Assembly: GCA_965248445.1 (NCBI GenBank)
Contig: CBDFJG010000004.1
Coordinates: 1,728,001 to 1,792,000, forward strand
Source of the DNA: Planctomycetota bacterium
GTDB lineage: Bacteria > Planctomycetota > JAJSAM01 > JAJVHW01
Reading direction: 5' to 3'
Length of the DNA: 64,000 nucleotides
The notes below the pieces were generated by a model. It saw nothing but the letters and a program-made list of their open reading frames with translations. It searched no databases and was not told the DNA's origin. Of the stretch, positions 45,071 to 62,841 are shown piece by piece. The position numbers and the translations under genes were made by a program. Each line of letters starts with the position of its first letter. Positions within the stretch are counted from its first letter, which is position 1.

Positions 45071-46201
45071 TCAGGTCTCGCTTCGCTCGGGTGTGGCGGG
45101 GGCACCGGCCGCCGCGGCGGCGGCGGCCGCGGCAACGCCTGATTTCGGCCGCCCCGCCTCGTCGCCACCCGCCGGTCCCAGCAGGACTGCGATCCAGCGG
45201 AGGTCCTCGCTGTGCTCGAGGAAGATCTTCACGATCATCGTCAACGGAACGGACAGGAGCATCCCGATCGGTCCCCACACCCAGCCCCAGAACACGAGGG
45301 AGAGCCAGACGACGAGACTCGACAGTCCCAGCTTACGCCCCATCATCTTCGGCTCGATGACGTTGCCCATGACGGTGTTGATCACGAAGTAGCCGATCGT
45401 GACGGCGAGCGCGCGCTGCCACCCCCACTCGATGTAGGCAAGCAAGACGGCAGGAATCGCCGCGATCATCGAACCGATCGTCGGCACGAAGTTCAGCACG
45501 AACGCGGCCAGACCCCACAACACCGCGTACCGCACATCGGCCACCGAGACGAGCAGCGACGCCAGGGCACCTGTCGCGAGGCTGACGTACGCCTTGATGC
45601 GAATGTACTCACGCACGGACCCCACGACCCCTGCGTACCGTTCGGCCACGCCCCCGGTGCCGATCGCCGCCGCACGCAGCTTGCGCGGGAAGCCGGCAGC
45701 TTCGCCCAGAATGAACACGACGGTCAGCAACACGAAGAACGTGTTCGAGAGGAGATCTGCAAGCGCTCCGGCCGTCTTGGCGACCGCATCGAGAAAGCGC
45801 TCCACGTCGACCAACTCCTGCGCGTCCTTCACGTACGTCTTGAGCGCCGGCGGTGCGAGTTCGAGCAGCTCCGTCTTGCGTTTCTCGACTCCCGTGTTGA
45901 GAGACGAATCCGTGTCGGCGAGTTCGGCGCGGAAGTCGGCCACCGCGTCGCCGACCAGGAGCGAGAGCCCCACGATGGCCACGAGCACGGCCATGAACAC
46001 GATCGCCACCGACGCCCACTCCGGCACGGACCAGCTCTTCAGGCGATTGACCGCGGGAATGCAGAGCACCGCGATCATCGCCGACGCCAGCACCGGCACG
46101 ACGATCGAGCCCGAGGCTTTGAGGCCGGCGATCACGATCACGAGCGACGCGATCAGGATCAGCGTTCGGCGCCCTGCGTCCTGACGGTCCCCCTCCGGCA
46201 T
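45071..46201 (-). CDS. AI-2E family transporter
   Basis: LNFVPTIG, NVIEPKMMG, WGWVWGPIGMLLSVPLT. Confidence 0.93.
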   Translation of the reverse strand: MPEGDRQDAGRRTLILIASLVIVIAGLKASGSIVVPVLASAMIAVLCIPAVNRLKSWSVPEWASVAIVFMAVLVAIVGLSLLVGDAVADFRAELADTDSSLNTGVEKRKTELLELAPPALKTYVKDAQELVDVERFLDAVAKTAGALADLLSNTFFVLLTVVFILGEAAGFPRKLRAAAIGTGGVAERYAGVVGSVREYIRIKAYVSLATGALASLLVSVADVRYAVLWGLAAFVLNFVPTIGSMIAAIPAVLLAYIEWGWQRALAVTIGYFVINTVMGNVIEPKMMGRKLGLSSLVVWLSLVFWGWVWGPIGMLLSVPLTMIVKIFLEHSEDLRWIAVLLGPAGGDEAGRPKSGVAAAAAAAAAGAPATPERSET

Positions 46202-46242
46202 CGCGCGAGTCTACCTGCGAGGGCTCCCGGTAGAGTCCGTTC

Positions 46243-47118
46243 GTGCCCGAGTATCCGGACGTGACGGTCTACGTAGAGCGGTTGCAGGCGTTCCTCGTCG
46301 ATCGCGTGGTGACCGGCCTGCGACTGCAGAGCCCGTCCCTGGTCAAGACGTTCGACCCGCCCGTGCGCTCGATCATCGGGAAACGGATCACCGGCGTCCG
46401 CCGCATCGGCAAACGCATCGTCCTGGAACTGCCGGACGAGCTGTTCGTCGTCCTACACCTCATGATCGCCGGCCGCCTGAAGTGGCGGCCACCCGGCGCG
46501 AAGCTCGTGCGAAAGCGGATGCACGGTGCGATCGACTTCGAGCACGGCACGGTTCTCCTGACCGAAGCCAGCACGAAGAAGCGCATGTCGCTGCACGTAG
46601 TGCGAAGCGAGGACGAACTCGCCGCCTTCGATCCCGGAGGCCTCGACGTCTTCTCTGCGACGACCGTCGAGTTCGCCGACCGACTCCGCCGCGAGAGTCA
46701 CACTCTGAAGCGCGCACTCACGGATCCCCGCACGCTGGACGCAATCGGCAACGCCTACAGCGACGAGATTCTGCACCGAGCGCGACTCTCGCCGCTCCAG
46801 CGGACGGTCAACCTTGACGACGAACACGTGGCGAGTCTGCACGCCGCCTGCCGCGACGTCCTCACGGAGTGGGCGGAGCGCAGCCGTCGCGAAGTAGGAG
46901 ACGGGTTCCCCGAGAAGGTGACTGCGTTTCGTCCGGAGATGGCGGTGCACGGAAAGAACGGCGAGCCGTGCCCGGTCTGCACGACTGCTGTCGCGCGCGT
47001 CATTCTCGCGGAGCGCGAGTGGAACTACTGTCCGGGCTGCCAGACGGGTGGCCGCCTGCTCAAGGACCGCGTCCTGTCGCGTCTCCTCAAGGAAGACTGG
47101 CCCGCACGAGCGGATTAG
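46243..47118 (+). CDS. Fpg/Nei family DNA glycosylase
   Basis: N-terminal PE, RRIGK, HLMIAG, IGNAYSDEILH (H2TH), zinc finger CPVC...CPGCQ. Confidence 0.93.
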   Translation: MPEYPDVTVYVERLQAFLVDRVVTGLRLQSPSLVKTFDPPVRSIIGKRITGVRRIGKRIVLELPDELFVVLHLMIAGRLKWRPPGAKLVRKRMHGAIDFEHGTVLLTEASTKKRMSLHVVRSEDELAAFDPGGLDVFSATTVEFADRLRRESHTLKRALTDPRTLDAIGNAYSDEILHRARLSPLQRTVNLDDEHVASLHAACRDVLTEWAERSRREVGDGFPEKVTAFRPEMAVHGKNGEPCPVCTTAVARVILAEREWNYCPGCQTGGRLLKDRVLSRLLKEDWPARAD

Positions 47119-47138
47119 CGGATACGGTCGCGCGCGCG

Positions 47139-48155
47139 ATGAGCAAGGCGGGGCAGGTAAGGGAGGACCGGTCGTTGCCGCGGCGTATCGAGTACGCCGC
47201 CGCGCGCGTCGTCGTCGCCGTCGTACACCTGCTTCCGGAGCGCGCCGCGTACTTCCTCGCGGAGTTGCTGGTGCTCCTGATCGTGTGCTTCGCGCGGCAG
47301 TTCCGGCGCCGTGCGGTCGAACACCTCGAGATCGCATTCGGTGATGACTACGACCTCGCGTGGCGACAGCGCACGGCATCCGAGTCGCTGCGGCAGTTGG
47401 CGTGGTACTTCATCGACATCCTGACGGCGGCCAAGAAGCTCCGCACGCCCGAGGGACTCGCGCACGTCGATCTCTCAGAGCTCGAGGAGTCGTTCAAGCG
47501 CGACGGTGTCACGGAGACGACCGGTGCTCTGATCGTGTCCGGCCACATGGGCGTGCCGGAGGTCGCCTCGCTTGCGATGGCGATGGCCGGGTGGCCGAAC
47601 TCCGTGATCGTGCGCAAGCTCGATAACCCGTTCTTGTGGGACTGGATCCACCGTCAACGGGAGGGCATTCCCCGCGTCATGATGACGAAGCACGGCGCAC
47701 TGCGCGGCGCCTACAAGGTGTTGCGCAAGAAGGGGCTCGTGGGGATCCAGATCGATCAGGACGCGCGGCGCAAAGGCGTGTTCGTGCCGTACTTCGGCCG
47801 GGCCGCCAGCACTCACGGCGGCGCGGCGACACTCGCGCTGACGTCCAAGGCGCCCGTATACATCGTGAACGGCTTCCGCACGGGGCGCCGGCGGTTCCGA
47901 TACCGCGTGCACTGTCAGGGTCCGCTCGACTTCACTCCCTCGGGTGACCACGATGCCGACGTCAAGGAGCTCACCACGCTGATGACCGCGGCGCTCGAGC
48001 ACGACGTGCGGCGCTACCCCGAGCACAACATGTGGGCGCACCGCCGCTGGAAGACCCGCCCCCCGTGGACCGTCAAGGGAAAGGAGCAGCTGGCGCGCAG
48101 GGCGAACCAGGTCGAGCGCCAGCGCACACCGGACGCCGCCGCGGAGGCCGGCTGA
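47139..48155 (+). CDS. Lipid A/lysophospholipid acyltransferase (LpxL/HtrB-like)
   Basis: SGHMGVPE (HxxxxE), IDQDA...VFVPYFG, YPEHNMWAHRRWKTRP. Confidence 0.9.
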   Translation: MSKAGQVREDRSLPRRIEYAAARVVVAVVHLLPERAAYFLAELLVLLIVCFARQFRRRAVEHLEIAFGDDYDLAWRQRTASESLRQLAWYFIDILTAAKKLRTPEGLAHVDLSELEESFKRDGVTETTGALIVSGHMGVPEVASLAMAMAGWPNSVIVRKLDNPFLWDWIHRQREGIPRVMMTKHGALRGAYKVLRKKGLVGIQIDQDARRKGVFVPYFGRAASTHGGAATLALTSKAPVYIVNGFRTGRRRFRYRVHCQGPLDFTPSGDHDADVKELTTLMTAALEHDVRRYPEHNMWAHRRWKTRPPWTVKGKEQLARRANQVERQRTPDAAAEAG

Positions 48156-48226
48156 GACGCTCTGCGGTATCGTCTGGACACGGCCCGTCCCGATTCCCCG
48201 TTCGGCGCCGTCTCATTCCCTGAGCG

Positions 48227-50506
48227 ATGTCAGCACGCCCCGACGCCATCGACCCCGCCCGCTTCGAGGAGTTGTTCGCGCACCGCGAGTGGGTGCGGCG
48301 CCTGGCGCGCACGCTGGTCGGGGATCACGCCTCAGCCGACGACGTGGAGCAGGAGGTGTGGGTCCGGGCACTGCGCGCTCCGCCCCGGGCGCTGAGATCT
48401 GCGCGTGCATGGCTGGGCACGGTCGCACGCAACGCGGCCCACGACAGCCGGCGTTCCACGAGCCGGCGGGCGGCGCGCGAGGCAAGAACCCGCGTCCGGC
48501 AGACCAGTTCATCGGCCTACGACGTCGTGTCACGCGCCGAGACGCACCGCGACCTCGTCAACCGCGTGCTCGCGCTGCCACAGCCGTACCGTTCGGTGGT
48601 CCTCCTGCGGTTCTACGACGGCCTCCCGCCGCGGGAGATCGGAGCGCGCACCGACACGACTGGGGAGACCGCGCGAAAGCGCGTCCAGCGCGGAGTCGCC
48701 ATGTTGCGCGACGGCTTCAGTGACGATCTCCACGTCCTGCTGCTCCCGCTCCTGGCGGGAGCGTCCAAACTCGCGAAAGGGGCCGCTGTGGGTACCAAGT
48801 CGAAGTCCAGCATCGCGCTCGTGCTTCTTCTCCTGCTCGGTCTGACCGTCGGGGCAGGCTGGATGGTGATGTCCAGCGCCGGAGGTGCAGGCAACGACCC
48901 GGACGTCGCCGCACTCGGAGCCAGTGGCGACGCGGTGGGAACCACGCGCAAGGGCGAGTACGGAGACGACGCAGCGGTCGACGACAGCGCCGAGGACCGA
49001 CCGGGAGCAGCCGGCGGCGGCAGCGCATCCACCGAAAACGCCCGCGCGCGCGAGCGGGTGGAAATCGGCGAGACCGCCGCCGCAGAAGCTGCGGACGAGG
49101 ACGCCGAGGATGCCGCCAAGCGGCGTGTCCGCGGCGCCCTCGTGTTCGCGGACGGGAGCGGACCCGTCGCCGGCGCCGTCGTCTATCTGCGCCCGTCGAC
49201 CGGATCGATGGTCGCCGTGCGCCGCGTCGTATCCGACGCAACCGGTGGGTTCTCGTTCGATGACCTGGACGAGGACGCCTACCGCCTTCAGGTGGGGGAT
49301 CGGATGGCCGTGGACAACCCGCCTGTCGAGTTCGTCCCCCACGACGTGTCGCGCGTGCGCGTGGGCACCGAGCCACTCGCCATCGACATCGAGCGGGGCC
49401 TGACCATCGAGGGCGTGCTGCTCGACTCGGCCGGTCAACTGATCACCGAGAAGGTCGTGGTGCGTCTGGACGGTCCCAAGGGGAGCGGGCTCACGCAGGG
49501 GGAGTCACTGCGCATGCTGCGCATCGTGAACGGGCATCTGCGCGTGCCGGGTCTGCGGCCGGGCAACTACGACATGAGCTTCCGTGCGGAGTACCCGGCA
49601 CTGGGAGAAGCGGCGCCGAGCGTGGGTTCCACCGTCATGGAGGACGTGGCAGCGGGCACGACCGACCTGACCGTCCGATTCGGTCCGGTTGGGAGGATCT
49701 CGGGCCGGCTGGTCGATCGCACGGGGAGCCCGATCGTGGCGAAGGGCGGCTGGCTCATGGCCACGCCCGCCGGGGGAGAGTCGGGATCGCTCGGCTCCGT
49801 CTGGATGACGTTCGCGGAGGATGGCACGTTCACCTCGCTGCCGCTCGACGGGAACCGCACGTACGACCTCATCGCCGGAAACTTCGAGGGGTTCGACGGG
49901 GGACGTACCAACACGGTCGTTCCCGGAGCCACCGACGTCCTCGTACGGCTGCGCCGCTCCGGCCGGATCACCGGACGCATCGTCCGCGCAGACGGCAAGA
50001 CCGTGCCCATCGGCCTGTACGTGCTCGCGCAGGCGACGGACGCTCCCTCCGGCCGGCCGGAGGGGAGTTTCTCGTTCGCGTACTCACAGGCCGACGGCTC
50101 GTTCGCGCTGGAGGGACTCGGCGAGTTCACGTTCCGGGTCGTGGCAGGCGGAGGTACGAGCGACCTCGCACTCGTCGAGGCATTGAACGGCATCCAGCCC
50201 GGCGCGACGGACGTCATCGTGCGCGTCCGCCCCGGCGAAACGGTGACCGGCCGGCTCGTGAACGCGGAGGGCGGCGCGGTGAGGACCTCACGGCTCAGCG
50301 CGTTGCGCGACGACCCGGTGCAGCCGACGCCCTCGGTGACGGTGGACTCCGCGGACGGTGACTTCGAGTTCCGCTCGCTGCGCCCCGGCCACTACCGGTT
50401 CTTCGCGCTGATCGGCGAGGAGAGCGTGCTGGTCGGCGACGCCGTTGCGCCGGCGACGGACGTCGTGCTCCGCCTGCCCGGCGGGAAGCGCGTCTCAGCG
50501 CGCTGA
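48227..50506 (+). CDS. ECF sigma factor with TM helix and extracytoplasmic carboxypeptidase-regulatory-like repeats
   Basis: ADDVEQE, AWLGTVARN (region 2), LPQPYRSVVLLRFYDG (region 4), TM, then repeated I.G.(L/V)...G beta-sandwich units. Confidence 0.88.
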   Translation: MSARPDAIDPARFEELFAHREWVRRLARTLVGDHASADDVEQEVWVRALRAPPRALRSARAWLGTVARNAAHDSRRSTSRRAAREARTRVRQTSSSAYDVVSRAETHRDLVNRVLALPQPYRSVVLLRFYDGLPPREIGARTDTTGETARKRVQRGVAMLRDGFSDDLHVLLLPLLAGASKLAKGAAVGTKSKSSIALVLLLLLGLTVGAGWMVMSSAGGAGNDPDVAALGASGDAVGTTRKGEYGDDAAVDDSAEDRPGAAGGGSASTENARARERVEIGETAAAEAADEDAEDAAKRRVRGALVFADGSGPVAGAVVYLRPSTGSMVAVRRVVSDATGGFSFDDLDEDAYRLQVGDRMAVDNPPVEFVPHDVSRVRVGTEPLAIDIERGLTIEGVLLDSAGQLITEKVVVRLDGPKGSGLTQGESLRMLRIVNGHLRVPGLRPGNYDMSFRAEYPALGEAAPSVGSTVMEDVAAGTTDLTVRFGPVGRISGRLVDRTGSPIVAKGGWLMATPAGGESGSLGSVWMTFAEDGTFTSLPLDGNRTYDLIAGNFEGFDGGRTNTVVPGATDVLVRLRRSGRITGRIVRADGKTVPIGLYVLAQATDAPSGRPEGSFSFAYSQADGSFALEGLGEFTFRVVAGGGTSDLALVEALNGIQPGATDVIVRVRPGETVTGRLVNAEGGAVRTSRLSALRDDPVQPTPSVTVDSADGDFEFRSLRPGHYRFFALIGEESVLVGDAVAPATDVVLRLPGGKRVSAR

Positions 50507-50734
50507 GATATTCGTCAGGATGTCGCCGACGGTGTCCATCGCAGCGGCTTCCTCGTCGCTGATCTCGATGCCGAGCTTGTCCTCGAGGTCCACCAGCAAG
50601 CGGAGTGCGTTCGGGGAGTCGATGCCCAGGTCTGCGACCAGGTCTTGCTCCGGCTTGATCTCGGCGCGGTCCAGACCCGTGATGTCGCAGAGGACCGCGT
50701 ACACGGCGTCTTCCTGGCTCACAGCGTCACCCAT
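50495..50734 (-). CDS. Acyl carrier protein
   Basis: Acidic ~75 aa, DLGIDS (phosphopantetheine Ser), LEDKLGIEI, TVGD. Confidence 0.92.
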   Translation of the reverse strand: MGDAVSQEDAVYAVLCDITGLDRAEIKPEQDLVADLGIDSPNALRLLVDLEDKLGIEISDEEAAAMDTVGDILTNISAR

Positions 50735-50761
50735 CGACCCATCCTCCCGTGACTCCCGCCG

Positions 50762-52468
50762 CTACCCGCTCTCCGGCCGCGACTCGGGGGCGTCCAATCG
50801 CGCGATCTCGCGCGCAAGGTAACGCCGCCGCAGCTCACCCCGTTTGACCTTCCCGCTGGACGTCTTCGGAATCTCGCCCCGCCGCACGAAGGCAACGTCG
50901 GCGAGCGGCAGGCCCATGTCCCTCCCGATGCGGCGGCGCACGTCGGCGGTGATCCCGTCGAGGTCCGGCCCGGACTCCGGATCGACCTCGATGACGAGGA
51001 CCGCAGCCTCCGTTCCCGATGCGGCCGGCACCGCGAATGCGCCGGTGCGGCAGGTGCCGCCCCCACCGGACGCCTCCTCGGCATGGCGCTCGAGTTCGGT
51101 CGGCATCACGTTGTCGCCACCGACGATGATCAGGTCCTTGATGCGGCCGGTGAGGTACAGCTCGCCGTCGGCCACGAAGCCGAGATCACCCGTGTGCAGC
51201 CAGCCGTCCCGCACGCACTCGGCAGTTGCCTCCGCATCGTCGTGGTAGCCGGAGAACAGCCCATCACCCCGCGTGCAGACCTCGCCGACCGTCTCCTCGG
51301 GGAGCGCGGAACCGTCCGGTGCGGAGACGCGCACTTCCATCCCGAGCACGGGCGCTCCGCAACTCGCGACGTCGCCGGCCTCGGTCGAACCCTCCGGCGC
51401 CGGTCGCGAGCGCACGCCCTCGCGCCGCTTGTCCATGCTGACGGTGAGCGTCGTCTCGGCCATGCCATACGCCGCCACGAGCGCCGCGCGGTCGAATCCG
51501 AGTGGCGCGAAGCGCTCGCAGAACGCGGCCGAGGTCGCCGGACGGACCATCTCGGCGCCCGTCACGGTCGCAGCCCAATTCGACAGGTCCACGCCCTCGA
51601 GCCGCTTCGCTTCGGCCCGGTCCACCAGAGTCTGGTAGGCGAAGTTCGGCGCGCCGCTGAACACGTGATCCGCCGCCGAGATTGCATGGAGCCACGACTC
51701 GGGCCGGCCGAGGAACGCGCGCTGCGAGTGGAACCAGACGGAGTGCCCCTGCACGAGCGAGAACAAGAGACACCCGACGAGACCCATGTCGTGGTGCAGC
51801 GGCAGCCACGAAACGAGCGCCCCGCCCGCGTCGCGCGTCTGCGGACGCGGCGTGGCGTCCGCAATCGCCTCGGTAGTGGCGACCGCCGCGCGGTGCGAGA
51901 TCGAGACCGCGCGCGGCAGTCCCGTCGAACCGCTCGTGAATTGCAGGAACGCGACGTCCTCACCGGTGCGGCTGACTACGCCGCCTCGCGACACGTCGCG
52001 AGCGGCGAACGCCTCGGAGGTCGTCATGCGCGCTGCCAGCTCGGCCTCGCCGAGCTCCGCCGCGCGCTTCACGGTGAGTTCGCTCGCGACGACGAGCGGC
52101 GGATCCAAGCGCGTGGTGAGCTCTGCGAGGACGCGGAACTGCTGGCCCGACGCCCCCAGCGCACTAGGCGGCGCAACGGCCACCGGATACGCGCCGGCGA
52201 GCAGCGCACCGAACCAGACGTCCAGGAACTCCCACGAGGCCGGCAGGCACACGAACACCGGCCGCCGTTCGTGGTTGACCAGCGAGGCGACGCGCCCGGC
52301 TGCGCGCTTCCAGGTGCGCTGCAGCGCGGCCCACGAGCGCAGCTCGCCTGGGCGGCCCCGGCGGTCGGTGAACAGGATCCCGCGGCCGGGTGACCGCTCC
52401 GCGGTGCGCGCGAGCGCGCCGAGGAGATCGTCGGGGAGGTCGCCCGCGAGGGTCACGACCGTCGACAC
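50762..52468 (-). CDS. Fatty acyl-AMP ligase (FAAL)
   Basis: LQFTSGSTGLPR, SWLPLHHDMGLVG, APNFAY, YGMAE, TGDLG, GRIKDLIIVGG, IPKTSSGK; adjacent to an ACP. Confidence 0.9.
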   Translation of the reverse strand: MSTVVTLAGDLPDDLLGALARTAERSPGRGILFTDRRGRPGELRSWAALQRTWKRAAGRVASLVNHERRPVFVCLPASWEFLDVWFGALLAGAYPVAVAPPSALGASGQQFRVLAELTTRLDPPLVVASELTVKRAAELGEAELAARMTTSEAFAARDVSRGGVVSRTGEDVAFLQFTSGSTGLPRAVSISHRAAVATTEAIADATPRPQTRDAGGALVSWLPLHHDMGLVGCLLFSLVQGHSVWFHSQRAFLGRPESWLHAISAADHVFSGAPNFAYQTLVDRAEAKRLEGVDLSNWAATVTGAEMVRPATSAAFCERFAPLGFDRAALVAAYGMAETTLTVSMDKRREGVRSRPAPEGSTEAGDVASCGAPVLGMEVRVSAPDGSALPEETVGEVCTRGDGLFSGYHDDAEATAECVRDGWLHTGDLGFVADGELYLTGRIKDLIIVGGDNVMPTELERHAEEASGGGGTCRTGAFAVPAASGTEAAVLVIEVDPESGPDLDGITADVRRRIGRDMGLPLADVAFVRRGEIPKTSSGKVKRGELRRRYLAREIARLDAPESRPESG

Positions 52469-52478
52469 TCCACGGGGA

Positions 52479-53306
52479 TCAGCCCTCTTCCGAGACCGCC
52501 TCGGTGAGCGAGGCGTTCTGCCACTCACGCTGGCCCGTCTCGATCGACTTCATGAGCCGCGTACGGCACTCCTCGCGCAGCTGCTCGAAGAAGTCGTCGG
52601 GGGACTCCATCCCGAATTCGTCCGTGTCGGCTTCGAGCGCCTGCAGGATCGGCGGCACGCGCTCGAGCACGTACTCGAGCCGCTCGAGAAGCGTCTCGGA
52701 CATCTCGCCCGCGCTCGCCTCGTTCTCCGCGAACGCCCCCTGAAATCGGTCGGCGAGGAAGATGTGATTGAAGCCGAGGTGTCGGGACTCGTCCTCCAGC
52801 ACGCGTGTGCACGCGTCGTCGAGCACGGGGTCCACGTGTGCGTCGCGGATCTGCTCGAGCGAGCGCTTCGCGAGTACCTCGGAGATGAGCGAGCCGGTGA
52901 GCCACTGCATCGGGTCATCGCACATGATCGCGCTCTGGAACAGGTAGCCCGGGGGGAACCGCCGGATCGACAGGGGCTCGCTGTCGATCCGGCCGTAGTA
53001 CCGCGTGAACAGCTCAACGTGCTTCGACTCGTCCATCAGCATCGAAGTGAGGAAGAACTGCCCCTCGACCTCCGAGGTGCGCCCCAGGATCTGGATGATC
53101 TGCGTGATGGAGTAGAGCGCGGCCTGCTCGCCCATCAAGATGGGGCTGAGCGCGCGTGCGAGCGAGCGGCGGTGGCTGTCCTTCTCGAGCGCGCCCGGCG
53201 CGAACCAGTCGATGTCCGCCGGCGACCAAGTGATCTTGATCGCCTTGTGCCAGAGCTTCATCTGCTTGCGCTGCTTCAGATCGGGAAGCGTCTTGTAGAT
53301 CCGCAT
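52479..53306 (-). CDS. Ferritin-like dimetal-carboxylate enzyme (R2lox/AurF/RNR-beta-like)
   Basis: Ligand pattern GEQAA...DESKH...SEVLA...DESRH; N-terminal WHKA...WSPADIDW. Confidence 0.85.
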   Translation of the reverse strand: MRIYKTLPDLKQRKQMKLWHKAIKITWSPADIDWFAPGALEKDSHRRSLARALSPILMGEQAALYSITQIIQILGRTSEVEGQFFLTSMLMDESKHVELFTRYYGRIDSEPLSIRRFPPGYLFQSAIMCDDPMQWLTGSLISEVLAKRSLEQIRDAHVDPVLDDACTRVLEDESRHLGFNHIFLADRFQGAFAENEASAGEMSETLLERLEYVLERVPPILQALEADTDEFGMESPDDFFEQLREECRTRLMKSIETGQREWQNASLTEAVSEEG

Positions 53307-53395
53307 CGCGGCCCTCCGCCGCCCGGTATACCGCCCCGCCCGGGAGGACTTCCCGTTCTGGCGGGGCGAGGCGCCGGGGGCGCTACCCTTCTCCG

Positions 53396-55642
53396 ATGCG
53401 ACTCCTCTCCCTCGCCGCTCTCGCCGTGGTCGGTGCCGTCGCACCTGCCGCCCTCGCCCAGGACACGGCTCCGCGGCACAGGCCGCTGGTCGAACTGTTC
53501 ACCTCACAGGGTTGAAGCAGCTGCCCGAAAGCCGACGAGTTCGTCGGCGAGTTGACGACGCCCGAGTTCCTCGCCGGTGCCACCGTCATCACCTGGCACG
53601 TGGACTACTGGGACTACCTGGGCTACGAGGATCCCTACGGCAAGTCAGAGCACACGCGGCGACAGCAGCTGTACCGAAAGCACCGCGCACCGAAGCACTT
53701 CGGTACACCACAGATCGCGATCGCGAACGAGTTCCTGCCCTGGGAGAAGGGCGCGTACGCGCGGGTTCCGGATCTCATCGCGGAGGCGAAGAAGAACGCG
53801 CCGTCGTTCAACCTCGTCGCGTCCATCGAGCGCGATGAACGAGGCGTCGTCGTCCACGCCGAACTGGATGCGATCGGCGAGCAGAGCACCGACGGTCTGG
53901 TGCTCCGCCCGGTACTGCTGCTGCGCGAGGCGAGGACCGACGTCACTGCAGGTGAGAACGAAGGAAAGACGCTGACGGAGTGGTTCGTGGCGCTGACAAC
54001 GGCCGTCCTGCCGGCGTCGCAAGCCGTCGACGGCGTGGCGAAGTTCCACCTGAAGGACACGACCGCGCACAGTGCGGAGCAGCTCGCAGTCGCCGTGCTT
54101 GTCGAGCGCGTCGACGACCTGCGCACGCTCGACTCGTGGTTCCTCGGCGTTGCTCCGCCGGCCGAGAGGCCCGACCGCGAGCACGACGACCAGCACATGG
54201 AGTCGGCGCTCGCCGCGGCCGGTGACAACGCCGTACAGCTCGAGCGGTTCCTCAAGCACTACGAAGACGACGAACAGAAGAGCACTGCGGCCCGCTGGCT
54301 CGTGGAGAACATGGAGGGCAAGGGCTACGTCGTCACCGAACTGCGCAACGCCAAGGGCGAGACGGTGCCGTTCGACACGCTCTCGTACAAGACGTACGCC
54401 GAATCGCTCTCGGCGATCGAGGCGCTCGAGAAGGAGCACGGCGAACTCGAGTTCGCGCGGGACCGGATCGTCGAGGACCTGGCTACAGTCACCGCGGAGT
54501 TCCTGATTCGCCGTACGGACCAGGCAATCGCAGCGTGGCGTGCGCAGCCGGCATCCCGGCGCGTCGACTTCGACACGTTCCTGAACCACGTCCTCCCCTA
54601 CCGCGGCAGCCAGGAGCCTCTGGACGACTGGATCGGCCCGCTGCGTGAGCGGACGGGTGAGATCGCCGCGGGACTGCCCCAGAACGCCGGGATCGACGAG
54701 CTCTACCGGGCGCTCAACAAGGACGTGAACTCCCGGGTGAAGTTCAACGAGCGCTTCTACCTGCACCCGACGGACCAGAGCTTCGGTGAGATGCTCGAGA
54801 GCGGCCAGGGCCGCTGCGAGGACATCACGAACATGATCACATACGCCGCGCGCAGCGCGGCGCTGGCGACGGCCGCGGACTACACGCCGTGGTGGGCGCA
54901 CCGCGACAACAACCACGCCTGGAACGTGCTCCTCGACCAGAACGGTGTGGGCGCCGACAAGGCGCAGTCCCATGCGGCGAAGATCTACCGCAAGACGTTC
55001 GCCGTCCAGCGGAACGCGCTCGCGTTCCAGCTACCTGAGGGCCGCGAGGCAGCAAACCGGTTCATGGCGAGCACGACGTACGTGGACGTCACCGACCAGT
55101 ACCGCGAGACCAAAGATGTCGGCACGTGGATCATCTCACCCGATCATGCCCTCGAGCGCTTCGCGTACCTCTGCGTGTTCAACGGCGGCGAGTGGAAGGC
55201 GATCCAGTGGGCGCCGGTCCACTACGCGTACGCGAAGTTCGCAAAGATGGGCCGCGACATCCTGTACCTGCCGGCGCTGCACGACGGCGACCGGCTGATC
55301 CCAGCGAACGCACCGCTCACCGTCGACGACGAAGGCGAGCGTTGGCCGCTGGCGGGCAAGGACCCCGGCACGAGCTTGCTCGCTACCTCCACCAAGCCGA
55401 GGCAGAAGAGCGCGGAGACCGGCGAGGTCACGCCCATCTCGCACCTGACCGCGGGCACCGAGTACACGCTGAAGCGGTGGGCTGACGGGGACTGGGTCGA
55501 CGTCGCGACGGTCATCGCCGGCAAGGAACCGCTGCGTTTCGACGACCTGCCGGAGGACGCGCTCTACTGGCTGGTGGCCAAGGACTCACGCAGGCTCGAG
55601 CGCCCGTTCACGATCCAGGAAGGCCGCCAGCGCTTCTGGTAG
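53396..55642 (+). CDS. Secreted selenoprotein: DUF1223 (U-S-S-C) fused to a transglutaminase-like domain, 748 aa, Sec at codon 40 (TGA 53513-53515)
   Basis: MRLLSLAALAVVGAVAPAALAQ signal, VELFTSQG-TGA-SSCPKAD in frame with HVDYWDYLG..DPY, TPQ, GENEGKTL; then GRCED and NHAWN. Confidence 0.9.
53516..53554 (+). promoter_or_regulatory. Candidate bacterial SECIS element
   Basis: UGA-AG-CAGCU-(GCCCGAAA)-GCCGACG-AGUU-CGUCGGC-G-AGUUG: perfect 7-bp upper stem, GU in the loop 22 nt after the UGA, 5-bp lower stem. Confidence 0.78.
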
Positions 55643-56437: not shown

Positions 56438-57664
56438 CTACAGGAAATAGTCGAGGCGTTCGTCGCCGGCGAGGGCGTGTGCGTCGATGTCGTCGTCGCT
56501 CTTGACCAGACCGTCCAGCCACCAGTTGACGTCGTGGTAGAGGCAGGTGACCTCCGCGCACTCGGCCTGGGCGTCGAACGTGGCGAGCTGTCCGGAGAGG
56601 CTCTCGTTCGTCGCGTTCGCCGTGCCGTCGTCCTGGAACGCCTCCTTGCCTGCGATGCGCGCGCGGTCCACGCCGCGATAGGCCGGGCAGTTGTAGAGGC
56701 CGGTCGGCGTGAGCACCTGGCGGAGCGCCTGCATGTGGCACATGTGCGGCTGGTGCGTGAAGTCACGCCAGTTGCCCGCTTCGAGGACGCGCAGGTTGGT
56801 TGACTCGAGCACCTGGAACGTGTCCGTCGCGTACGTCTTGCACTCGTCGACCAGCCCGCGGATGCGCTTCGTCATCGCCGCGAGCTCGTACTGCGCCTTC
56901 TCCGGATCCATGACCTCGGAGCCGGTCTCGCTGCGGACCAGGAACGGTTTGAGCGAGATGTAGTCGAACTGGTGGTCGCGGGCGAGCTTGGTGGCGGTCA
57001 CCATCTCGTGGAAGTTCTCGACGATGTTGACGTCGTCGCGCATGGCGCCCTTCCACACGATGATGAAGCTGAAGCCGTAGCGGAACTTCGGGTTGACGAG
57101 CTTGGTCTTCGGCACCCACTCGCACAGCGACTCGAGCGTGATCGACTTGTTGATCGGCTTGTGCATGCGGATGAATGTGTCGTTCGTGCCGGAGTCGAGG
57201 GACAGGCGCACCCAGTCGCGCTCGTCGAGGCAATCCGCGACCTCGTGGATCTTCTTGCCGCCGCTGCCGTTGGTGACGACCGCGATCTGCAATCCGAGGT
57301 CCTTCATGTAGCGCACCATGCCCACGAAGCCCGGGTACACGGTCGGTTCGCCGCCGCCGATGATGATCACGCTGCGCAGGCCACGGTCGCGCATCTCGCG
57401 CAGCGAGTCGCGCAGGACCTGCTCGTCGTGGTTGTTCTTCGTGTTGAGGATGTCCCAGTCGATGCAGTGATCGCAGCGGTAGTTGCAGGCGGTCGTGAGA
57501 TCGAGGTTGATCGAGATCGGCGCAATGCGCGGCGCCACCGGCGGTGTCTCGCCGGCCGCTTCGGCCCGGCGCACGCCGCGACGCCAGTTCACGTAGTCGA
57601 GAACCAGCGGCAGCACGGCGGGCTGCCGCAGCTTGCCGGTGAAGTCATGGATCGCGTGAGCCAT
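56438..57664 (-). CDS. Radical SAM protein with Cys-containing C-terminal (twitch/SPASM-like) extension
   Basis: CNYRCDHC (CxxxCxxC), GGGEP, VTNG, RLSLD; C-terminal CHM...YNCP...CAEVTC. Confidence 0.92.
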   Translation of the reverse strand: MAHAIHDFTGKLRQPAVLPLVLDYVNWRRGVRRAEAAGETPPVAPRIAPISINLDLTTACNYRCDHCIDWDILNTKNNHDEQVLRDSLREMRDRGLRSVIIIGGGEPTVYPGFVGMVRYMKDLGLQIAVVTNGSGGKKIHEVADCLDERDWVRLSLDSGTNDTFIRMHKPINKSITLESLCEWVPKTKLVNPKFRYGFSFIIVWKGAMRDDVNIVENFHEMVTATKLARDHQFDYISLKPFLVRSETGSEVMDPEKAQYELAAMTKRIRGLVDECKTYATDTFQVLESTNLRVLEAGNWRDFTHQPHMCHMQALRQVLTPTGLYNCPAYRGVDRARIAGKEAFQDDGTANATNESLSGQLATFDAQAECAEVTCLYHDVNWWLDGLVKSDDDIDAHALAGDERLDYFL

Positions 57665-57676
57665 CGAGTCTCCTGC

Positions 57677-58633
57677 CTATCCCGAACGCGCGAACCCGTC
57701 GACCACGTCCATCAGCGCTTGCATGCGCCACGTGATCGACTCGCCCCGCGCGAACTCCGGCCCCGCCGCCTCGCCCCGCACGGCCGCCACGAAGCCGGCC
57801 ACGAGTCCCGCGAGCGGGTCGGGCACCGGCACCGTCCGGCCGTCGTGCTCGAACGACAGCGCGTAGTCCTCCATGCGCACGCGGCGTTCGGCGGACACGC
57901 CGTTCAGCGCATACCCCGCCGGACGCGGCTGCTCGCGCTTTCGGGCGAGCCGCACACGCACCACCGACCCGCCCTCCACCGTGGAGACCCGGAACAGTGC
58001 TTCAAGTCTCCCCGCGTCCTGTGCAACCGTCGAGAAACACAGCCCCTCGATCGGTCCGGAGGGCGCCATCAGCGCCTGCACGAGGCTGAGCGGATGGCTC
58101 ATCGAGTCCGCGATCATCCCGGCGCCGCCGCTGGTGGGAGACAGCCACATCTCGACGTGCCGCACGGGCGCGTCCCTGACCGTCGGGTGCAGCTGACGGT
58201 AAGCCGGCAGCGTGAGCGGCCACTGGACACACTCCCACAGCGGCAGGCCCGCCGCGGCAAACGTGGAGACGTGGTGCGCGGTGCGCACGGCGTCGTCCTC
58301 CGTCCCCCACACGAACGGCTTCTCGCACAGGACCGGCAACCCTGCGGCACAGGCCTCTGTGAGGTACCCATCGTGCGTTGCGGGAGGCGCGGCGATGACC
58401 AGCCCGTCCAGGGGGTGGTCGTCCAAGAGGCTCGCCAGAGACGGATAGCCCGCGGCCTGGATCCCGTGTCCCGCCAGAACCGTTCTGCCCTCGTCGAGAG
58501 TCTCCTGCCGGCTGCCGATGAACGCCGGCACCTCCGCCCCGGCCGCGACCAACCACCTCGCGATGTGCTCGCCGAGCCCCTGTCGTCGGCGGACGACGCC
58601 GACGACACCGATCCGAGGGGCTCGCGCAGTCAT
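57677..58633 (-). CDS. Gfo/Idh/MocA-family oxidoreductase
   Basis: RIGVVG, IAAPPATH, VLCEKP, DSMSHPLS. Confidence 0.88.
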   Translation of the reverse strand: MTARAPRIGVVGVVRRRQGLGEHIARWLVAAGAEVPAFIGSRQETLDEGRTVLAGHGIQAAGYPSLASLLDDHPLDGLVIAAPPATHDGYLTEACAAGLPVLCEKPFVWGTEDDAVRTAHHVSTFAAAGLPLWECVQWPLTLPAYRQLHPTVRDAPVRHVEMWLSPTSGGAGMIADSMSHPLSLVQALMAPSGPIEGLCFSTVAQDAGRLEALFRVSTVEGGSVVRVRLARKREQPRPAGYALNGVSAERRVRMEDYALSFEHDGRTVPVPDPLAGLVAGFVAAVRGEAAGPEFARGESITWRMQALMDVVDGFARSG

Positions 58634-58821
58634 GCCGACGACTCCGCGCGCGCAGCAGCGCGTCCTCGCAACCGTGTCGACTTGGGCGGGACGCCAATCG
58701 GGAGGGCGCGCCGGATGCGCAGCAAGCGGCGTGACCGACCTCCTCCGAAGCGGTCGAAGACCGCGGAGGAGGGTGTGATGCGAGCGCCGGGTGGCGCATC
58801 GAGCGCAGCGCGATCGGCGTG

Positions 58822-58893
58822 CCACCTGGCAGTGAGCCCCTGCCGTCGTCGGACGACACCGACGACTCCGATCCGGGGCGGGCTCGCGGCCAT
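58822..58893 (-). pseudogene. Diverged 5' fragment duplicating the start of the Gfo/Idh/MocA gene
   Basis: MAASPPRIGVVGVVRRRQGL-TARW versus MTARAPRIGVVGVVRRRQGL-GEHIARW; nucleotide differences are mostly third-position. Confidence 0.7.
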
Positions 58894-61364: not shown

Positions 61365-62841
61365 CCCGAATCGTTCACCAGCCGGGAATCTGAGCGGGCC
61401 GTCGTCTGTCTAAGTGCTCGTACTCGCTAGTACTTGCACCGACAGGAGCGCCGGCCCGATGACGACAGACTGTAGCCCGCAGGGGACCCTCTTCGCGGGC
61501 ATCTGTGGACGCACCGCGGTGACGCGCTTCGACGCCGGTACCGTGACGAGCGACGGGGGCGTGCTGCTGCTCGAGCGGGTCGATCGTCGCATCGATCTGC
61601 TCTCGCGGTTTGCGCGCTGCTTCGGGGACCACCGGGACCCGCGTCGGGTCGAGCACACGGTCGGCCAGATGCTGCGTCAGCGGGTCTTCGGGCTGTGCGC
61701 GGGCTACGAGGATCTGGTGGACCACGACCATGTCGGCAAGGACCCGCTGTTTGCCGCGGCGTGCGGCAAGCGCGAGGGTGCTCTGGCCACGCACCCGACG
61801 CTCTCGCGGCTCGAGACCACGCAGCTCGGCGCCACGGCACAGACGCGCTACGCCAAGATCGAGATGGACCAGGAGCGCGTGGACAGCGTGCTCAGCGACG
61901 TCTTCTGCGAGGCCATGGGGCCGGAGGATCCGGGCCTGCTCGTGCTGGACCTGGACCACTCCGACGTGCGGCTGCACGGCCGGCAGGAGGGCCGCTTCTT
62001 CCACGGCTACTACGGGCACTACTGCTACCTGCCGCTGTACGTCTTCTGCGGCGAGCACCTCTTGCTCGCTCGGCTCCAGACCGCTGACAGAGATCCCGCG
62101 CGCGGAGTCGTGGACGAGCTCCGTGCGCTGGTCTTACGTCTGCGGCGCCGCTGGCCCCGGGCCAAGGTGCTCGTGCGCGCAGACTCGGGCTTTTGCCGCG
62201 AGGAGCTGATGGCCTGGTGCGAGGCCGCCGGCCACTTCTACCTGCTGGGCATGGCGCGCAATGAGCGCCTTGAGCGACACGTCGAAGACGCGCTCGATGA
62301 GGCCGCAGCCCGTGCCGTGCAGACCGGCCGAGCAGCCCGGGTCTTTCGCGACTTTGCCTGGACCACGCTGGGGAGCTGGAGCCAGAGGCGTCGCGTGGTC
62401 GCCAAGGCCGAGCACCTGCCGGGCGGCAAGCGCAATCCCCGCTTCGTGGTGACCAATCTGCCGCCTCGTAGCTGGAGCAGCAAGCGTCTCTACGAGCAGC
62501 TCTACTGCGCCCGGGGCGAGGCGGAGAATCGCATCAAGGAGCAGCAGCTCGAGCTCTTCGGCACCCGTCTGTCGGTGCACACGATGCAGGGCAACGCCGT
62601 GCGGATGGCCATGTCGGCCATGGCCTACGTCCTGACCTGTGCGCTGCGACGCATCGGTCTCGCCGGCACCGAGATGGCGCGTGCGCAAGCCGGCACGATC
62701 CGCCTGCGGCTGCTCAAGATCGGCGCGCTCGTGCGGATCACGACGCGCCGGATCTGGGTCTCGATGTCCTCGTCGTGGCCCTGGCAGCACGTCTTCGAGA
62801 CTTGTGCACGGCGACTGCTGGCATCCCCGAAGCCGACCTGA
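61365..62841 (+). mobile_element. IS1380-family insertion sequence (right end not resolved)
   Basis: Transposase plus a probable left end ctag|CCCGAATCGTTCACCA; no matching IR found immediately after the transposase. Confidence 0.8.
61459..62841 (+). CDS. IS1380-family DDE transposase
   Basis: TSDGG, DPR, GYED, LDLD...HGRQEG.FFHGYY..YCYLPL, VRADSGF, Y..RG.AENRIKE. Confidence 0.94.
   Translation: MTTDCSPQGTLFAGICGRTAVTRFDAGTVTSDGGVLLLERVDRRIDLLSRFARCFGDHRDPRRVEHTVGQMLRQRVFGLCAGYEDLVDHDHVGKDPLFAAACGKREGALATHPTLSRLETTQLGATAQTRYAKIEMDQERVDSVLSDVFCEAMGPEDPGLLVLDLDHSDVRLHGRQEGRFFHGYYGHYCYLPLYVFCGEHLLLARLQTADRDPARGVVDELRALVLRLRRRWPRAKVLVRADSGFCREELMAWCEAAGHFYLLGMARNERLERHVEDALDEAAARAVQTGRAARVFRDFAWTTLGSWSQRRRVVAKAEHLPGGKRNPRFVVTNLPPRSWSSKRLYEQLYCARGEAENRIKEQQLELFGTRLSVHTMQGNAVRMAMSAMAYVLTCALRRIGLAGTEMARAQAGTIRLRLLKIGALVRITTRRIWVSMSSSWPWQHVFETCARRLLASPKPT

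Follow-up and report, generated by a model that had tools for sequence, protein, structure and literature searches.

Ferritin-like diiron enzymes activate O2, and LpxL and LpxJ are late acyltransferases of lipid A. Soluble desaturases of acyl chains on acyl carrier protein (ACP) use the housekeeping acyl pool, not a private ACP loaded by a fatty acyl-AMP ligase (FAAL); JamB, of the alkyne-forming JamABC system, is a membrane desaturase; and the C28 chain of rhizobial AcpXL is built by dedicated elongation enzymes. In mycobactin synthesis, a ligase, a private ACP, a chain-modifying enzyme and an acyltransferase (MbtM, MbtL, MbtN and MbtK) are combined; the modifier, MbtN, is a flavin dehydrogenase, and MbtK belongs to the GNAT family and acts on the siderophore. 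The same ligase-ACP-modifier-acyltransferase logic appears to apply to a locus in a 64,000-nucleotide stretch of DNA from a Planctomycetota bacterium (contig CBDFJG010000004.1, positions 1,728,001 to 1,792,000; the window, hereafter). Here, three co-oriented genes encode a ferritin-like oxidase (P0001), a FAAL (P0002) and an ACP (P0003). A preliminary description of the window had reported this trio, and the open reading frames (ORFs), the oxidase motifs (WHKA 19-22, WSPADIDW 27-34, E60, DESKH 92-96, E143 and DESRH 172-176) and the family matches agree with it.

As that description had also suggested, the oxidase resembles R2lox and the beta subunit of ribonucleotide reductase (RNR). R2lox is its nearest solved relative. 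R2lox is defined by an R2-type ferritin-like fold and by four Glu and two His ligands, of which the first is Glu (PMC4118035). R2lox and its relatives have been known structurally for about 15 years and have no agreed physiological substrate; a partner protein has been named as what is needed (PMC9314684). The earlier statement that no substrate is assigned needs a qualification: hydroxylation of alkanes by GkR2loxI has been reported (PMC10867098). The present oxidase family arrives with a probable carrier and loading enzyme, and three small soluble proteins offer a direct assay.

Two other systems invite comparison. In rhizobia, the specialised carrier AcpXL gives an unusual chain to LpxXL, a dedicated LpxL-type lipid A acyltransferase (PMC4402001). 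The cassette differs in that its carrier would be loaded by a FAAL from free acid, no elongation genes recur beside it, LpxJ and LpxL appear interchangeable, and an oxidase is attached. CylABC, NocLMO and JamABC likewise combine a FAAL, an ACP and an O2-dependent enzyme that works on a carrier-held chain, as is proposed here; unlike them, the cassette lacks the CylC motifs and a downstream polyketide synthase (PKS) or non-ribosomal peptide synthetase (NRPS).

Taken together, the findings below have led to the following model. The FAAL would activate a free fatty acid and load it onto the private ACP, the oxidase would oxidise this carrier-bound chain, and a homologue of the late acyltransferases would then attach it to lipid A in a secondary position. 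This acyltransferase is probably P0272, an LpxL-family protein encoded nearby, in the window, and would be LpxJ (DUF374) in most relatives. Since no reductase recurs at the loci, electrons would be drawn from a general ferredoxin or flavodoxin. The FAAL-ACP-acyltransferase core would also work without the oxidase, sending free fatty acid to lipid A and bypassing the carrier of type II fatty acid synthesis. Loading of the ACP by the FAAL is very probable, lipid A is a probable acceptor, and action of the oxidase on the ACP-bound chain can be called rather likely; the joint reading, in which all three hold, is tentative and falls a little short of an even chance.

If the model is true, the oxidase would give the R2lox neighbourhood its first genetically defined physiological substrate and lipopolysaccharide (LPS) biosynthesis its first ferritin-like enzyme. 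FAALs, mainly tied to PKS/NRPS products and mycobacterial lipids, would enter lipid A assembly, and Planctomycetota, Thermoanaerobaculia and Opitutales, groups on which little work has been done, would be expected to carry unusual secondary acyl chains in their LPS. An enzyme for selective C-H oxidation of acyl-ACP would also be useful as a biocatalyst. In the open-access PMC and bioRxiv literature, no description was found of a FAAL-ACP-late acyltransferase module or of lipid A synthesis involving a ferritin-like enzyme, although the supplements of a FAAL survey (PMC12820801) may show the cassette. The portions available of PMC11631085 and PMC8406957 contain nothing on a FAAL-ACP-oxidase system. 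Each element has precedent; the novelty lies in the dependence seen across whole genomes, the core that lacks the oxidase, the tests on diagnostic residues and the partner of LpxL type.

Conservation of the three-gene module

A scan of 185,579 genomes yielded 68 oxidase loci, from Planctomycetota, Acidobacteriota and Verrucomicrobiota. A FAAL gene is present at 40 of these, directly downstream in 38, and an ACP gene at 35 (33 above the score threshold, plus L055 and L059). When the count is confined to the 51 loci whose downstream sequence reaches 3.5 kb or more, 34 have the FAAL, 29 an ACP above threshold, and 15 neither; a metagenome scan gave the same linkage pattern. The three-gene module is conserved in Planctomycetota, Acidobacteriota and Opitutales, and its linkage is more than chance. 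The preliminary description had staked its proposal on such conservation, and here it was borne out.

Whole-genome comparisons were made for 50 of the 68 loci, the 18 left out being mostly short contigs or duplicates (L014, L041, L044 and L048 among them). All 50 oxidase-positive genomes carry a FAAL orthologue, at E 1e-110 or better, and all 50 carry the dedicated ACP, including those in which the oxidase gene is unlinked. Genomes were also drawn evenly, each draw containing its positive centre genome. The 201 genomes drawn from the Acidobacteriota class of G058 included 11 with the oxidase and 33 with the FAAL (29 of them below 1e-115); in the window's phylum, the figures were 10 and 18 of 301. 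Every oxidase carrier in the two draws (11 and 10) was FAAL-positive, with Fisher tests giving p values of 5e-10 and 3e-14 that are descriptive only, as kin are not independent. The oxidase occurs in two of 151 Opitutales and in none of 40 relatives of the window genome (G000).

The reverse dependence is absent. Among the 29 class-sample genomes with a FAAL orthologue, 18 are without the oxidase, and when five oxidase-negative FAAL genomes were rechecked at E 0.001, four gave no match and one a weak partial match. Because the oxidase was never found without the FAAL, in the draws or in the 50 tested genomes, while so many FAAL genomes lack the oxidase, the oxidase has the profile of an optional tailoring add-on to a FAAL-ACP core.

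The FAAL itself is readily recognised. P0002 scores best, among 98 NCBIfam families, against NF006624 (354 bits; cut-off 600), and its best PDB match is the E. coli FAAL 3pbk (E 3.5e-63); with the MbtM model it reaches 260 bits, below the cut-off of 621. Its FAAL insertion segment has 31 residues, compared with 34 in 16 of 31 family copies, 44 in 3pbk and 18 in the FadD-like ligase of the same genome. FAALs that have been characterised activate fatty acids and transfer them to holo-ACP (PMC12820801, PMC11837247). The housekeeping ACP of the window genome is separate from P0003 and lies in a plsX-fabD-fabG-acpP-fabF cluster.

In another Planctomycetota family (G502, with L265/L302; L264, L267 and L268), an LpxL-like-FAAL-ACP arrangement without the oxidase was seen, in which the insertion segment of the FAAL is even shorter.

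Other modifying enzymes were observed at related loci. Radical SAM/SPASM and glyoxalase-fold genes stand divergent from the oxidase in L009, L051, L057, L066, L078 and L099, and the same pair (57-64% identity), not found in G000, precedes a D-S-P-type ACP in L278; it is possibly a second tailoring unit. In L263 (G686:C13), the order is radical SAM (DUF4070)-ACP-FAAL-DUF374, the oxidase was not found in the genome, and the radical SAM enzyme stands in the oxidase's place. A broader hypothesis is that swappable tailoring enzymes, the oxidase in some genomes and a radical SAM enzyme in others, modify scavenged acids loaded by FAAL and ACP, and that the chain is then added to lipid A, in a secondary position, by LpxJ or by members of a special LpxL clade. 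The chances of this wider scheme are somewhat poorer than even.

Neighbouring acyltransferases and the acyl acceptor

The preliminary description regarded the cassette as stand-alone, a view that the comparison does not support. The only recurring fourth gene at oxidase loci is DUF374, present at 19 of 68; an LpxL-like gene is present at seven of the 68. In 32 of the 50 genomes (30 plus 2, counted over all fetched component-bearing stretches), a DUF374 or LpxL-type gene lies beside a component, and an MsbA-like gene is found in the same stretches of 11; in the window itself, the LpxL-family gene for P0272 had been overlooked. Furthermore, at 18 oxidase-negative FAAL loci, the ACP is present in 17, DUF374 in 12, an MsbA-like gene in 14 and an O-antigen ligase-type gene in four, in each of which it follows the ACP. 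LpxC was detected in 49 of the 50 oxidase-positive genomes and in G000, which also has two LpxL-family genes and one unlinked DUF374 gene.

The cassette DUF374 protein matches PF04028 well above the cut-off (78.6 vs 26.8 bits), and the WH, D, PDG and WD motifs are retained in 19 of 19 such proteins in the first locus set. DUF374 is LpxJ, a lipid A late acyltransferase in which W60-H61, D86, D132 and W172-D173 are essential (PMC6148475). LpxJ and LpxL belong to non-homologous acyltransferase families, yet they alternate at the cassettes, the LpxL type coming from three branches; LpxL-type enzymes use acyl-ACP (PMC4402001). Supply by a FAAL and a private ACP is not described for either in the literature found. 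The fourth gene at the cassettes usually encodes a late-acyltransferase homologue, and this suggests a lipid of the cell envelope rather than a free natural product.

Several further arrangements were seen at these loci. An MsbA-like-FAAL-ACP-DUF374 run occurs at 18 loci (L221-L231, L234-L239 and L245), in genomes of which 11 are without the oxidase and seven have it elsewhere. A second, divergent LpxC match (E ~1e-27 to 1e-30) is present in the oxidase-positive Opitutales G053, G082, G087 and G088, and genes of the outer-membrane lipid transport system Mla (MlaA, C, D, E and the ABC subunit) lie upstream of the Opitutales cassettes L014, L015, L041, L044 and L048.

The window's candidate, P0272, is encoded 2340 bases beyond P0003 and matches PF03279 with 113.6 bits (cut-off 22.3). 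A 19-row tree, whose rows differ in letter make-up, unites it (100/99) with the L014, L041 and L048 copies that precede the oxidase by 2-3 kb, and not with the copies of five oxidase-less genomes of the same family. An 80-row quick tree places it in a 34-row clade (99) with a motif that is mostly H-x-G-x-P-[DE]. Among eight whole genomes with a member of this clade, six have the oxidase (G000, L014, L041, L048, G053 and G082), and the clade is present in one of 151 Opitutales, that one an oxidase carrier. In addition, P0275, a 62% relative of P0272, and P0005, a 67% relative of the oxidase, which are the nearest relatives on long contigs, are each on a 76,853-base ENA contig, probably the same one. 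Since the oxidase tree (FastTree) keeps the window copy, in its own 17-row branch, apart from Opitutales, the pairing of the oxidase with the P0272 clade seems to hold in two lineages. With three lineages considered, two for and one against, there is moderate support, from sequence comparison, for P0272 as the acceptor-side partner. A simple transfer of the oxidase from Opitutales was rejected on the same tree, and no donor is claimed.

The lone DUF374 gene of G000 (C4:1555194-1555994; L069:10312-10995), about 220 kb off behind aspartate kinase and 33% identical to a cassette copy, is a candidate alternative acceptor enzyme.

However, it should be noted that a series of observations weighs against the proposed pathway. 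P0272 is below the NCBIfam LpxL/LpxP cut-offs (107 bits vs 248; 81 vs 298), and its gene lies on the opposite strand, where Fpg and an ECF gene belong to its run, and is not co-transcribed with the cassette. No orthologue of the oxidase or the FAAL was found in the related genomes G471 and G510 (86-87% complete), both of which have the P0272 clade, and 48 of the 50 oxidase-positive genomes lack that clade. In 18 of the 50, 12 of them Planctomycetota, the fetched stretches have no acyltransferase beside any component, and DUF374 was absent from the whole genome in all five of the acyltransferase-less Planctomycetota carriers that were tested. The MsbA-like proteins are below NCBIfam equivalog cut-offs, and the LpxJ and LpxL families could acylate other glycolipids. 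The FAAL insertion of P0002, though present in the alignment, is shortened by 13 residues relative to E. coli FAAL. No reductase or ferredoxin gene recurs at oxidase loci, and in at least 13 genomes, the commoner kind of split, the oxidase is apart while the ACP is kept with the FAAL. Finally, carriers are related, so that the counts overstate independent events, and the adjacency figures are given without a random-gene baseline.

Some of these points favour another explanation, in which loading and tailoring take place on the ACP as proposed and the acceptor is a different envelope lipid, such as a glycolipid, phospholipid or aminolipid. Besides the 12 Planctomycetota carriers without an adjacent acyltransferase, in three of which (L274-L276) the ACP adjoins a GT4 glycosyltransferase gene, there are weak matches of LpxL-family proteins to PatA-type models, and a sister clade of the oxidase is found amid DAGK, CDP-alcohol phosphatidyltransferase and desaturase genes. 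Nevertheless, the LpxJ, LpxL-type, MsbA-like and O-antigen ligase neighbours all indicate LPS, and PlsC, PlsB and OlsB/OlsA are absent from the annotated recurring neighbours. A different envelope lipid is an unlikely acceptor, though the strongest competitor of lipid A.

The oxidase and its reaction

When modules are split, the ACP stays with the oxidase and the FAAL lies elsewhere in L010, L038, L055, L092 and L095, which form one branch; in L102, L103 and L134, the ACP is divergent from the oxidase. CylC and NocO, which are ferritin-like and encoded with a FAAL and an ACP, act on acyl-ACP (PMC12101540). This precedent and the split loci suggest that the oxidase acts on the carrier. It could instead belong to the same pathway but meet its substrate away from the carrier, either as free acid that the FAAL has yet to activate or as the secondary chain already transferred to lipid A, the latter in the manner of LpxO with a different cofactor. 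In R2lox, a bound free fatty acid has its carboxylate at the metals, and a positive patch on the surface has been proposed as a contact site for a partner or for the membrane (PMC9314684). The oxidase is unlinked from both FAAL and ACP at 15 of the 51 loci with enough flank, and an oxidase-FAAL pair without an adjacent ACP was found at seven loci. Against this stand the two sets of split loci and the CylC/NocO precedent, as well as the absence of any predicted membrane segment in the oxidase model; action off the carrier is unlikely, slightly more so than a different envelope acceptor.

The relatives of P0001 are, on sequence grounds, a tight, separate family. Among 1916 candidates, 302 match at E <= 0.001, and the best 119 (P0001 itself aside) are 46-90% identical to it. 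A profile search of 1.84 billion representatives returned one full-length cluster at 1e-137, with fragments, and the sister clade only from 4e-46. No fused or longer forms were found among 7991 candidates, which is weak evidence. The AlphaFold2 model (pLDDT 95.9) is all-helical and soluble. Its best structural match is the R2lox structure 4hr0 (Z 23.4, rmsd 2.6, 249 aligned residues, 20% identity), followed by RNR R2 (22.7, tied with R2lox within 1 Z), ADO (21.3), AurF (15.2) and the desaturases 1oq4, from castor (13.7), and 1za0 (13.5). The top Foldseek rows, to rank 32, are all R2lox, which is also the best sequence match. In an Atlas feature search, the nearest clusters are without names, and acyl-ACP desaturase clusters are among the lower matches (0.92), a lead only.

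The residue counts cover 200 unique sequences of full length (214 rows) and exclude partial matches of less than 230 residues or 37% identity. The six metal ligands, E60, E93, H96, E143, E173 and H176, are invariant, with the first one Glu and not the Asp of RNR R2. A146, which is Ala in 200/200, aligns across a one-residue gap with A171 of R2lox, and G59 aligns with R2lox G68, presumably a small residue of the channel. This alanine opens the fatty-acid tunnel of R2lox; every RNR R2 group, even class Ic, has Phe instead, and the A171F change blocks fatty-acid binding in R2lox (PMC6399176, PMC4118035). The four Glu and two His ligands, the small channel residues and a Phe at the RNR radical position are thus shared with R2lox. 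However, the Val72/Tyr162 ether cross-link pair of R2lox is missing (position 63 is Ala in 178 and Gly in 22; position 138 is Gly in 199 and Ser in one), the NCBIfam R2lox model gives at best 50.6 bits (cut-off 194), and the oxidase is encoded with a FAAL and an ACP. Because the native Val/Tyr pair is required for the Mn preference of R2lox (PMC6399176), a diiron centre would be the likelier default. In short, the oxidase resembles an R2lox-type ligand-binding oxidase, but by these residue and profile tests it fails membership in R2lox, RNR beta, AurF, CylC and the soluble desaturases.

Given action on the carrier, hydroxylation would be slightly favoured, because R2lox is the nearest solved relative and the Asp/His relay of the castor desaturase is without counterparts by helix register. 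Hydroxy fatty acids copurify with R2lox (PMC9314684), which is also reported to hydroxylate alkanes (PMC10867098), and replacement of the castor relay residues raises hydroxylation (PMC8940945). By register rather than direct alignment, the likely counterparts of castor Asp101 and His203 are position 56 (Val/Ile/Leu) and position 150 (mostly Met/Leu/Ser), and P0001 has no match to PF03405, the family of soluble acyl-ACP desaturases, at E 0.01. These desaturases (castor delta-9 and mycobacterial DesA) and BioE are ferritin-like, as the oxidase is, and are diiron enzymes that act on acyl-ACP. Desaturation, which would parallel the palmitoleate added by LpxP, comes close behind hydroxylation, and any other outcome would be a minor prospect.

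One such outcome is cleavage or deformylation of the chain, either BioE-like, to a short dicarboxyl-ACP for biotin or to a shortened lipid A chain, or ADO-like, to an alkane. BioE, a ferritin-like protein about 20% identical to ADO, cleaves long-chain acyl-ACP or acyl-CoA and is encoded at a bioF/D/B/A cluster with bioL (PMC12704756), and the P0001 model does match ADO structures (Z 19-21; E ~1e-16 with a wide profile). Nevertheless, neither biotin genes nor an acyl-ACP reductase, the partner of ADO, is among the annotated recurring neighbours of the 68 loci, and an acyltransferase partner requires an intact acyl thioester. Cleavage is improbable.

It is marginally more improbable that the trio serves a natural product made elsewhere in the genome, with the oxidase as a CylC-like halogenase or AurF-like N-oxygenase or with the trio as a JamABC-like source of alkyne starters. 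The architecture is that of the cyl, noc and jam starter systems (PMC11837247, PMC12101540), and P0001 gives a weak match to the AurF family PF11583 (29.3 bits vs a cut-off of 29.6, over residues 85-193 only). However, the third His of AurF and CylC (HxxDExxH) is absent in 200/200, position 169 being Ile in 190, Val in nine and Thr in one, and the QExxH of CylC is replaced by DExxH, with D92 in all 200; the AurF fold match is also far below that of R2lox. PKS/NRPS genes never recur across the 68 loci, and envelope genes recur instead. An acyl-tailoring role, as first proposed, is still the best reading, but the halogenation that was offered with it is not supported.

Lastly, that the gene encodes an RNR beta subunit or stress ferritin merely travelling with FAAL and ACP is very improbable: RNR R2 structures match about as well as R2lox (Z 21-23) and W27, D172 and H96, which we take to be the R2-type electron-transfer triad, are kept, but position 100, four residues after the first His, where the radical tyrosine of class Ia/Ib RNR presumably lies, is Phe in 196 and Leu in four of 200, Ala stands where all R2 groups have Phe, there is no NrdA neighbour, and the oxidase was never found without a FAAL. 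The preliminary description had named grouping with true RNR beta subunits, together with an unchanged acyl-ACP, as one finding that would overturn it, and the radical position, Ala146 and the Glu first ligand place the oxidase outside them.

The sister clade (P0132-P0148; L107-L135 and L137) is about 26-37% identical to the oxidase and mostly has Asp for the third Glu ligand. Nearby lie an HMG-CoA-reductase-like gene, whose cluster counts 16 ORFs, DAGK/YegS (11), a membrane fatty-acid desaturase, and a FAAL or FabF. It is a separate, unexplained lipid cassette.

Gene calls and surroundings

The features of the locus are collected in the table.

Table. Features of the oxidase-FAAL-ACP locus and adjoining genes (window coordinates)
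Feature	Coordinates	Strand	Remarks
P0001, ferritin-like dimetal-carboxylate oxidase, 275 aa	53306-52479	-	ligands E60, E93, H96, E143, E173, H176
P0002, fatty acyl-AMP ligase (FAAL), 588 aa as called	52528-50762	-	FAAL models and structures match best
P0003, dedicated ACP, 79 aa	50734-50495	-	PP-binding ACP; Ser40 in family-specific D-S-P motif
P0272, LpxL-family acyltransferase, 338 aa	47139-48155	+	PF03279; H-x4-E dyad; putative member of the system
ECF sigma factor with membrane segment and carboxypeptidase-regulatory-like repeats, 759 aa	48227-50506	+	domain scan
DUF1223 and transglutaminase-like domain fusion	53552-55642	+	divergent from oxidase gene

The real start of P0002 is more likely at 52468 or 52456, 10-22 bases after the P0001 stop, which gives 568 or 564 aa and avoids a 50-base overlap with P0001. 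A GGAGG lies 8 bases 5' of the P0003 ATG. The ECF-sigma fusion gene, which separates the P0272 gene from the cassette, is convergent with the latter, and its end overlaps the P0003 stop by 12 bases. In a domain scan, no PKS, NRPS, thioesterase or reductase was found among the immediate neighbours, which are only the ECF-sigma and DUF1223/transglutaminase fusions, just as the preliminary description had it. A scan of 46000-54000 gave no promoter-like sites and five terminator-like sites (2.4 +/- 1.5 in shuffles), none of them at the cassette end. The GC content of the cassette and that of its third codon positions (GC3) are the same as in the flanks, so there is no compositional sign of recent transfer, although the 40 relatives examined lack the oxidase. 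The genome is 5.4 Mb and 92% complete, and the oxidase gene is single-copy.

Farther along the window, a radical SAM protein adjoins a GFO/IDH/MocA oxidoreductase (56438-57664 and 57677-58825, both on the minus strand). Among NCBIfam families, this radical SAM protein fits viperin best (65 bits; cut-off 180), and it is not related to the cassette-linked radical SAM enzymes. A 475-aa ORF at 61414-62841 on the minus strand reads, from its translation, like what we take to be an IS1380-type transposase.

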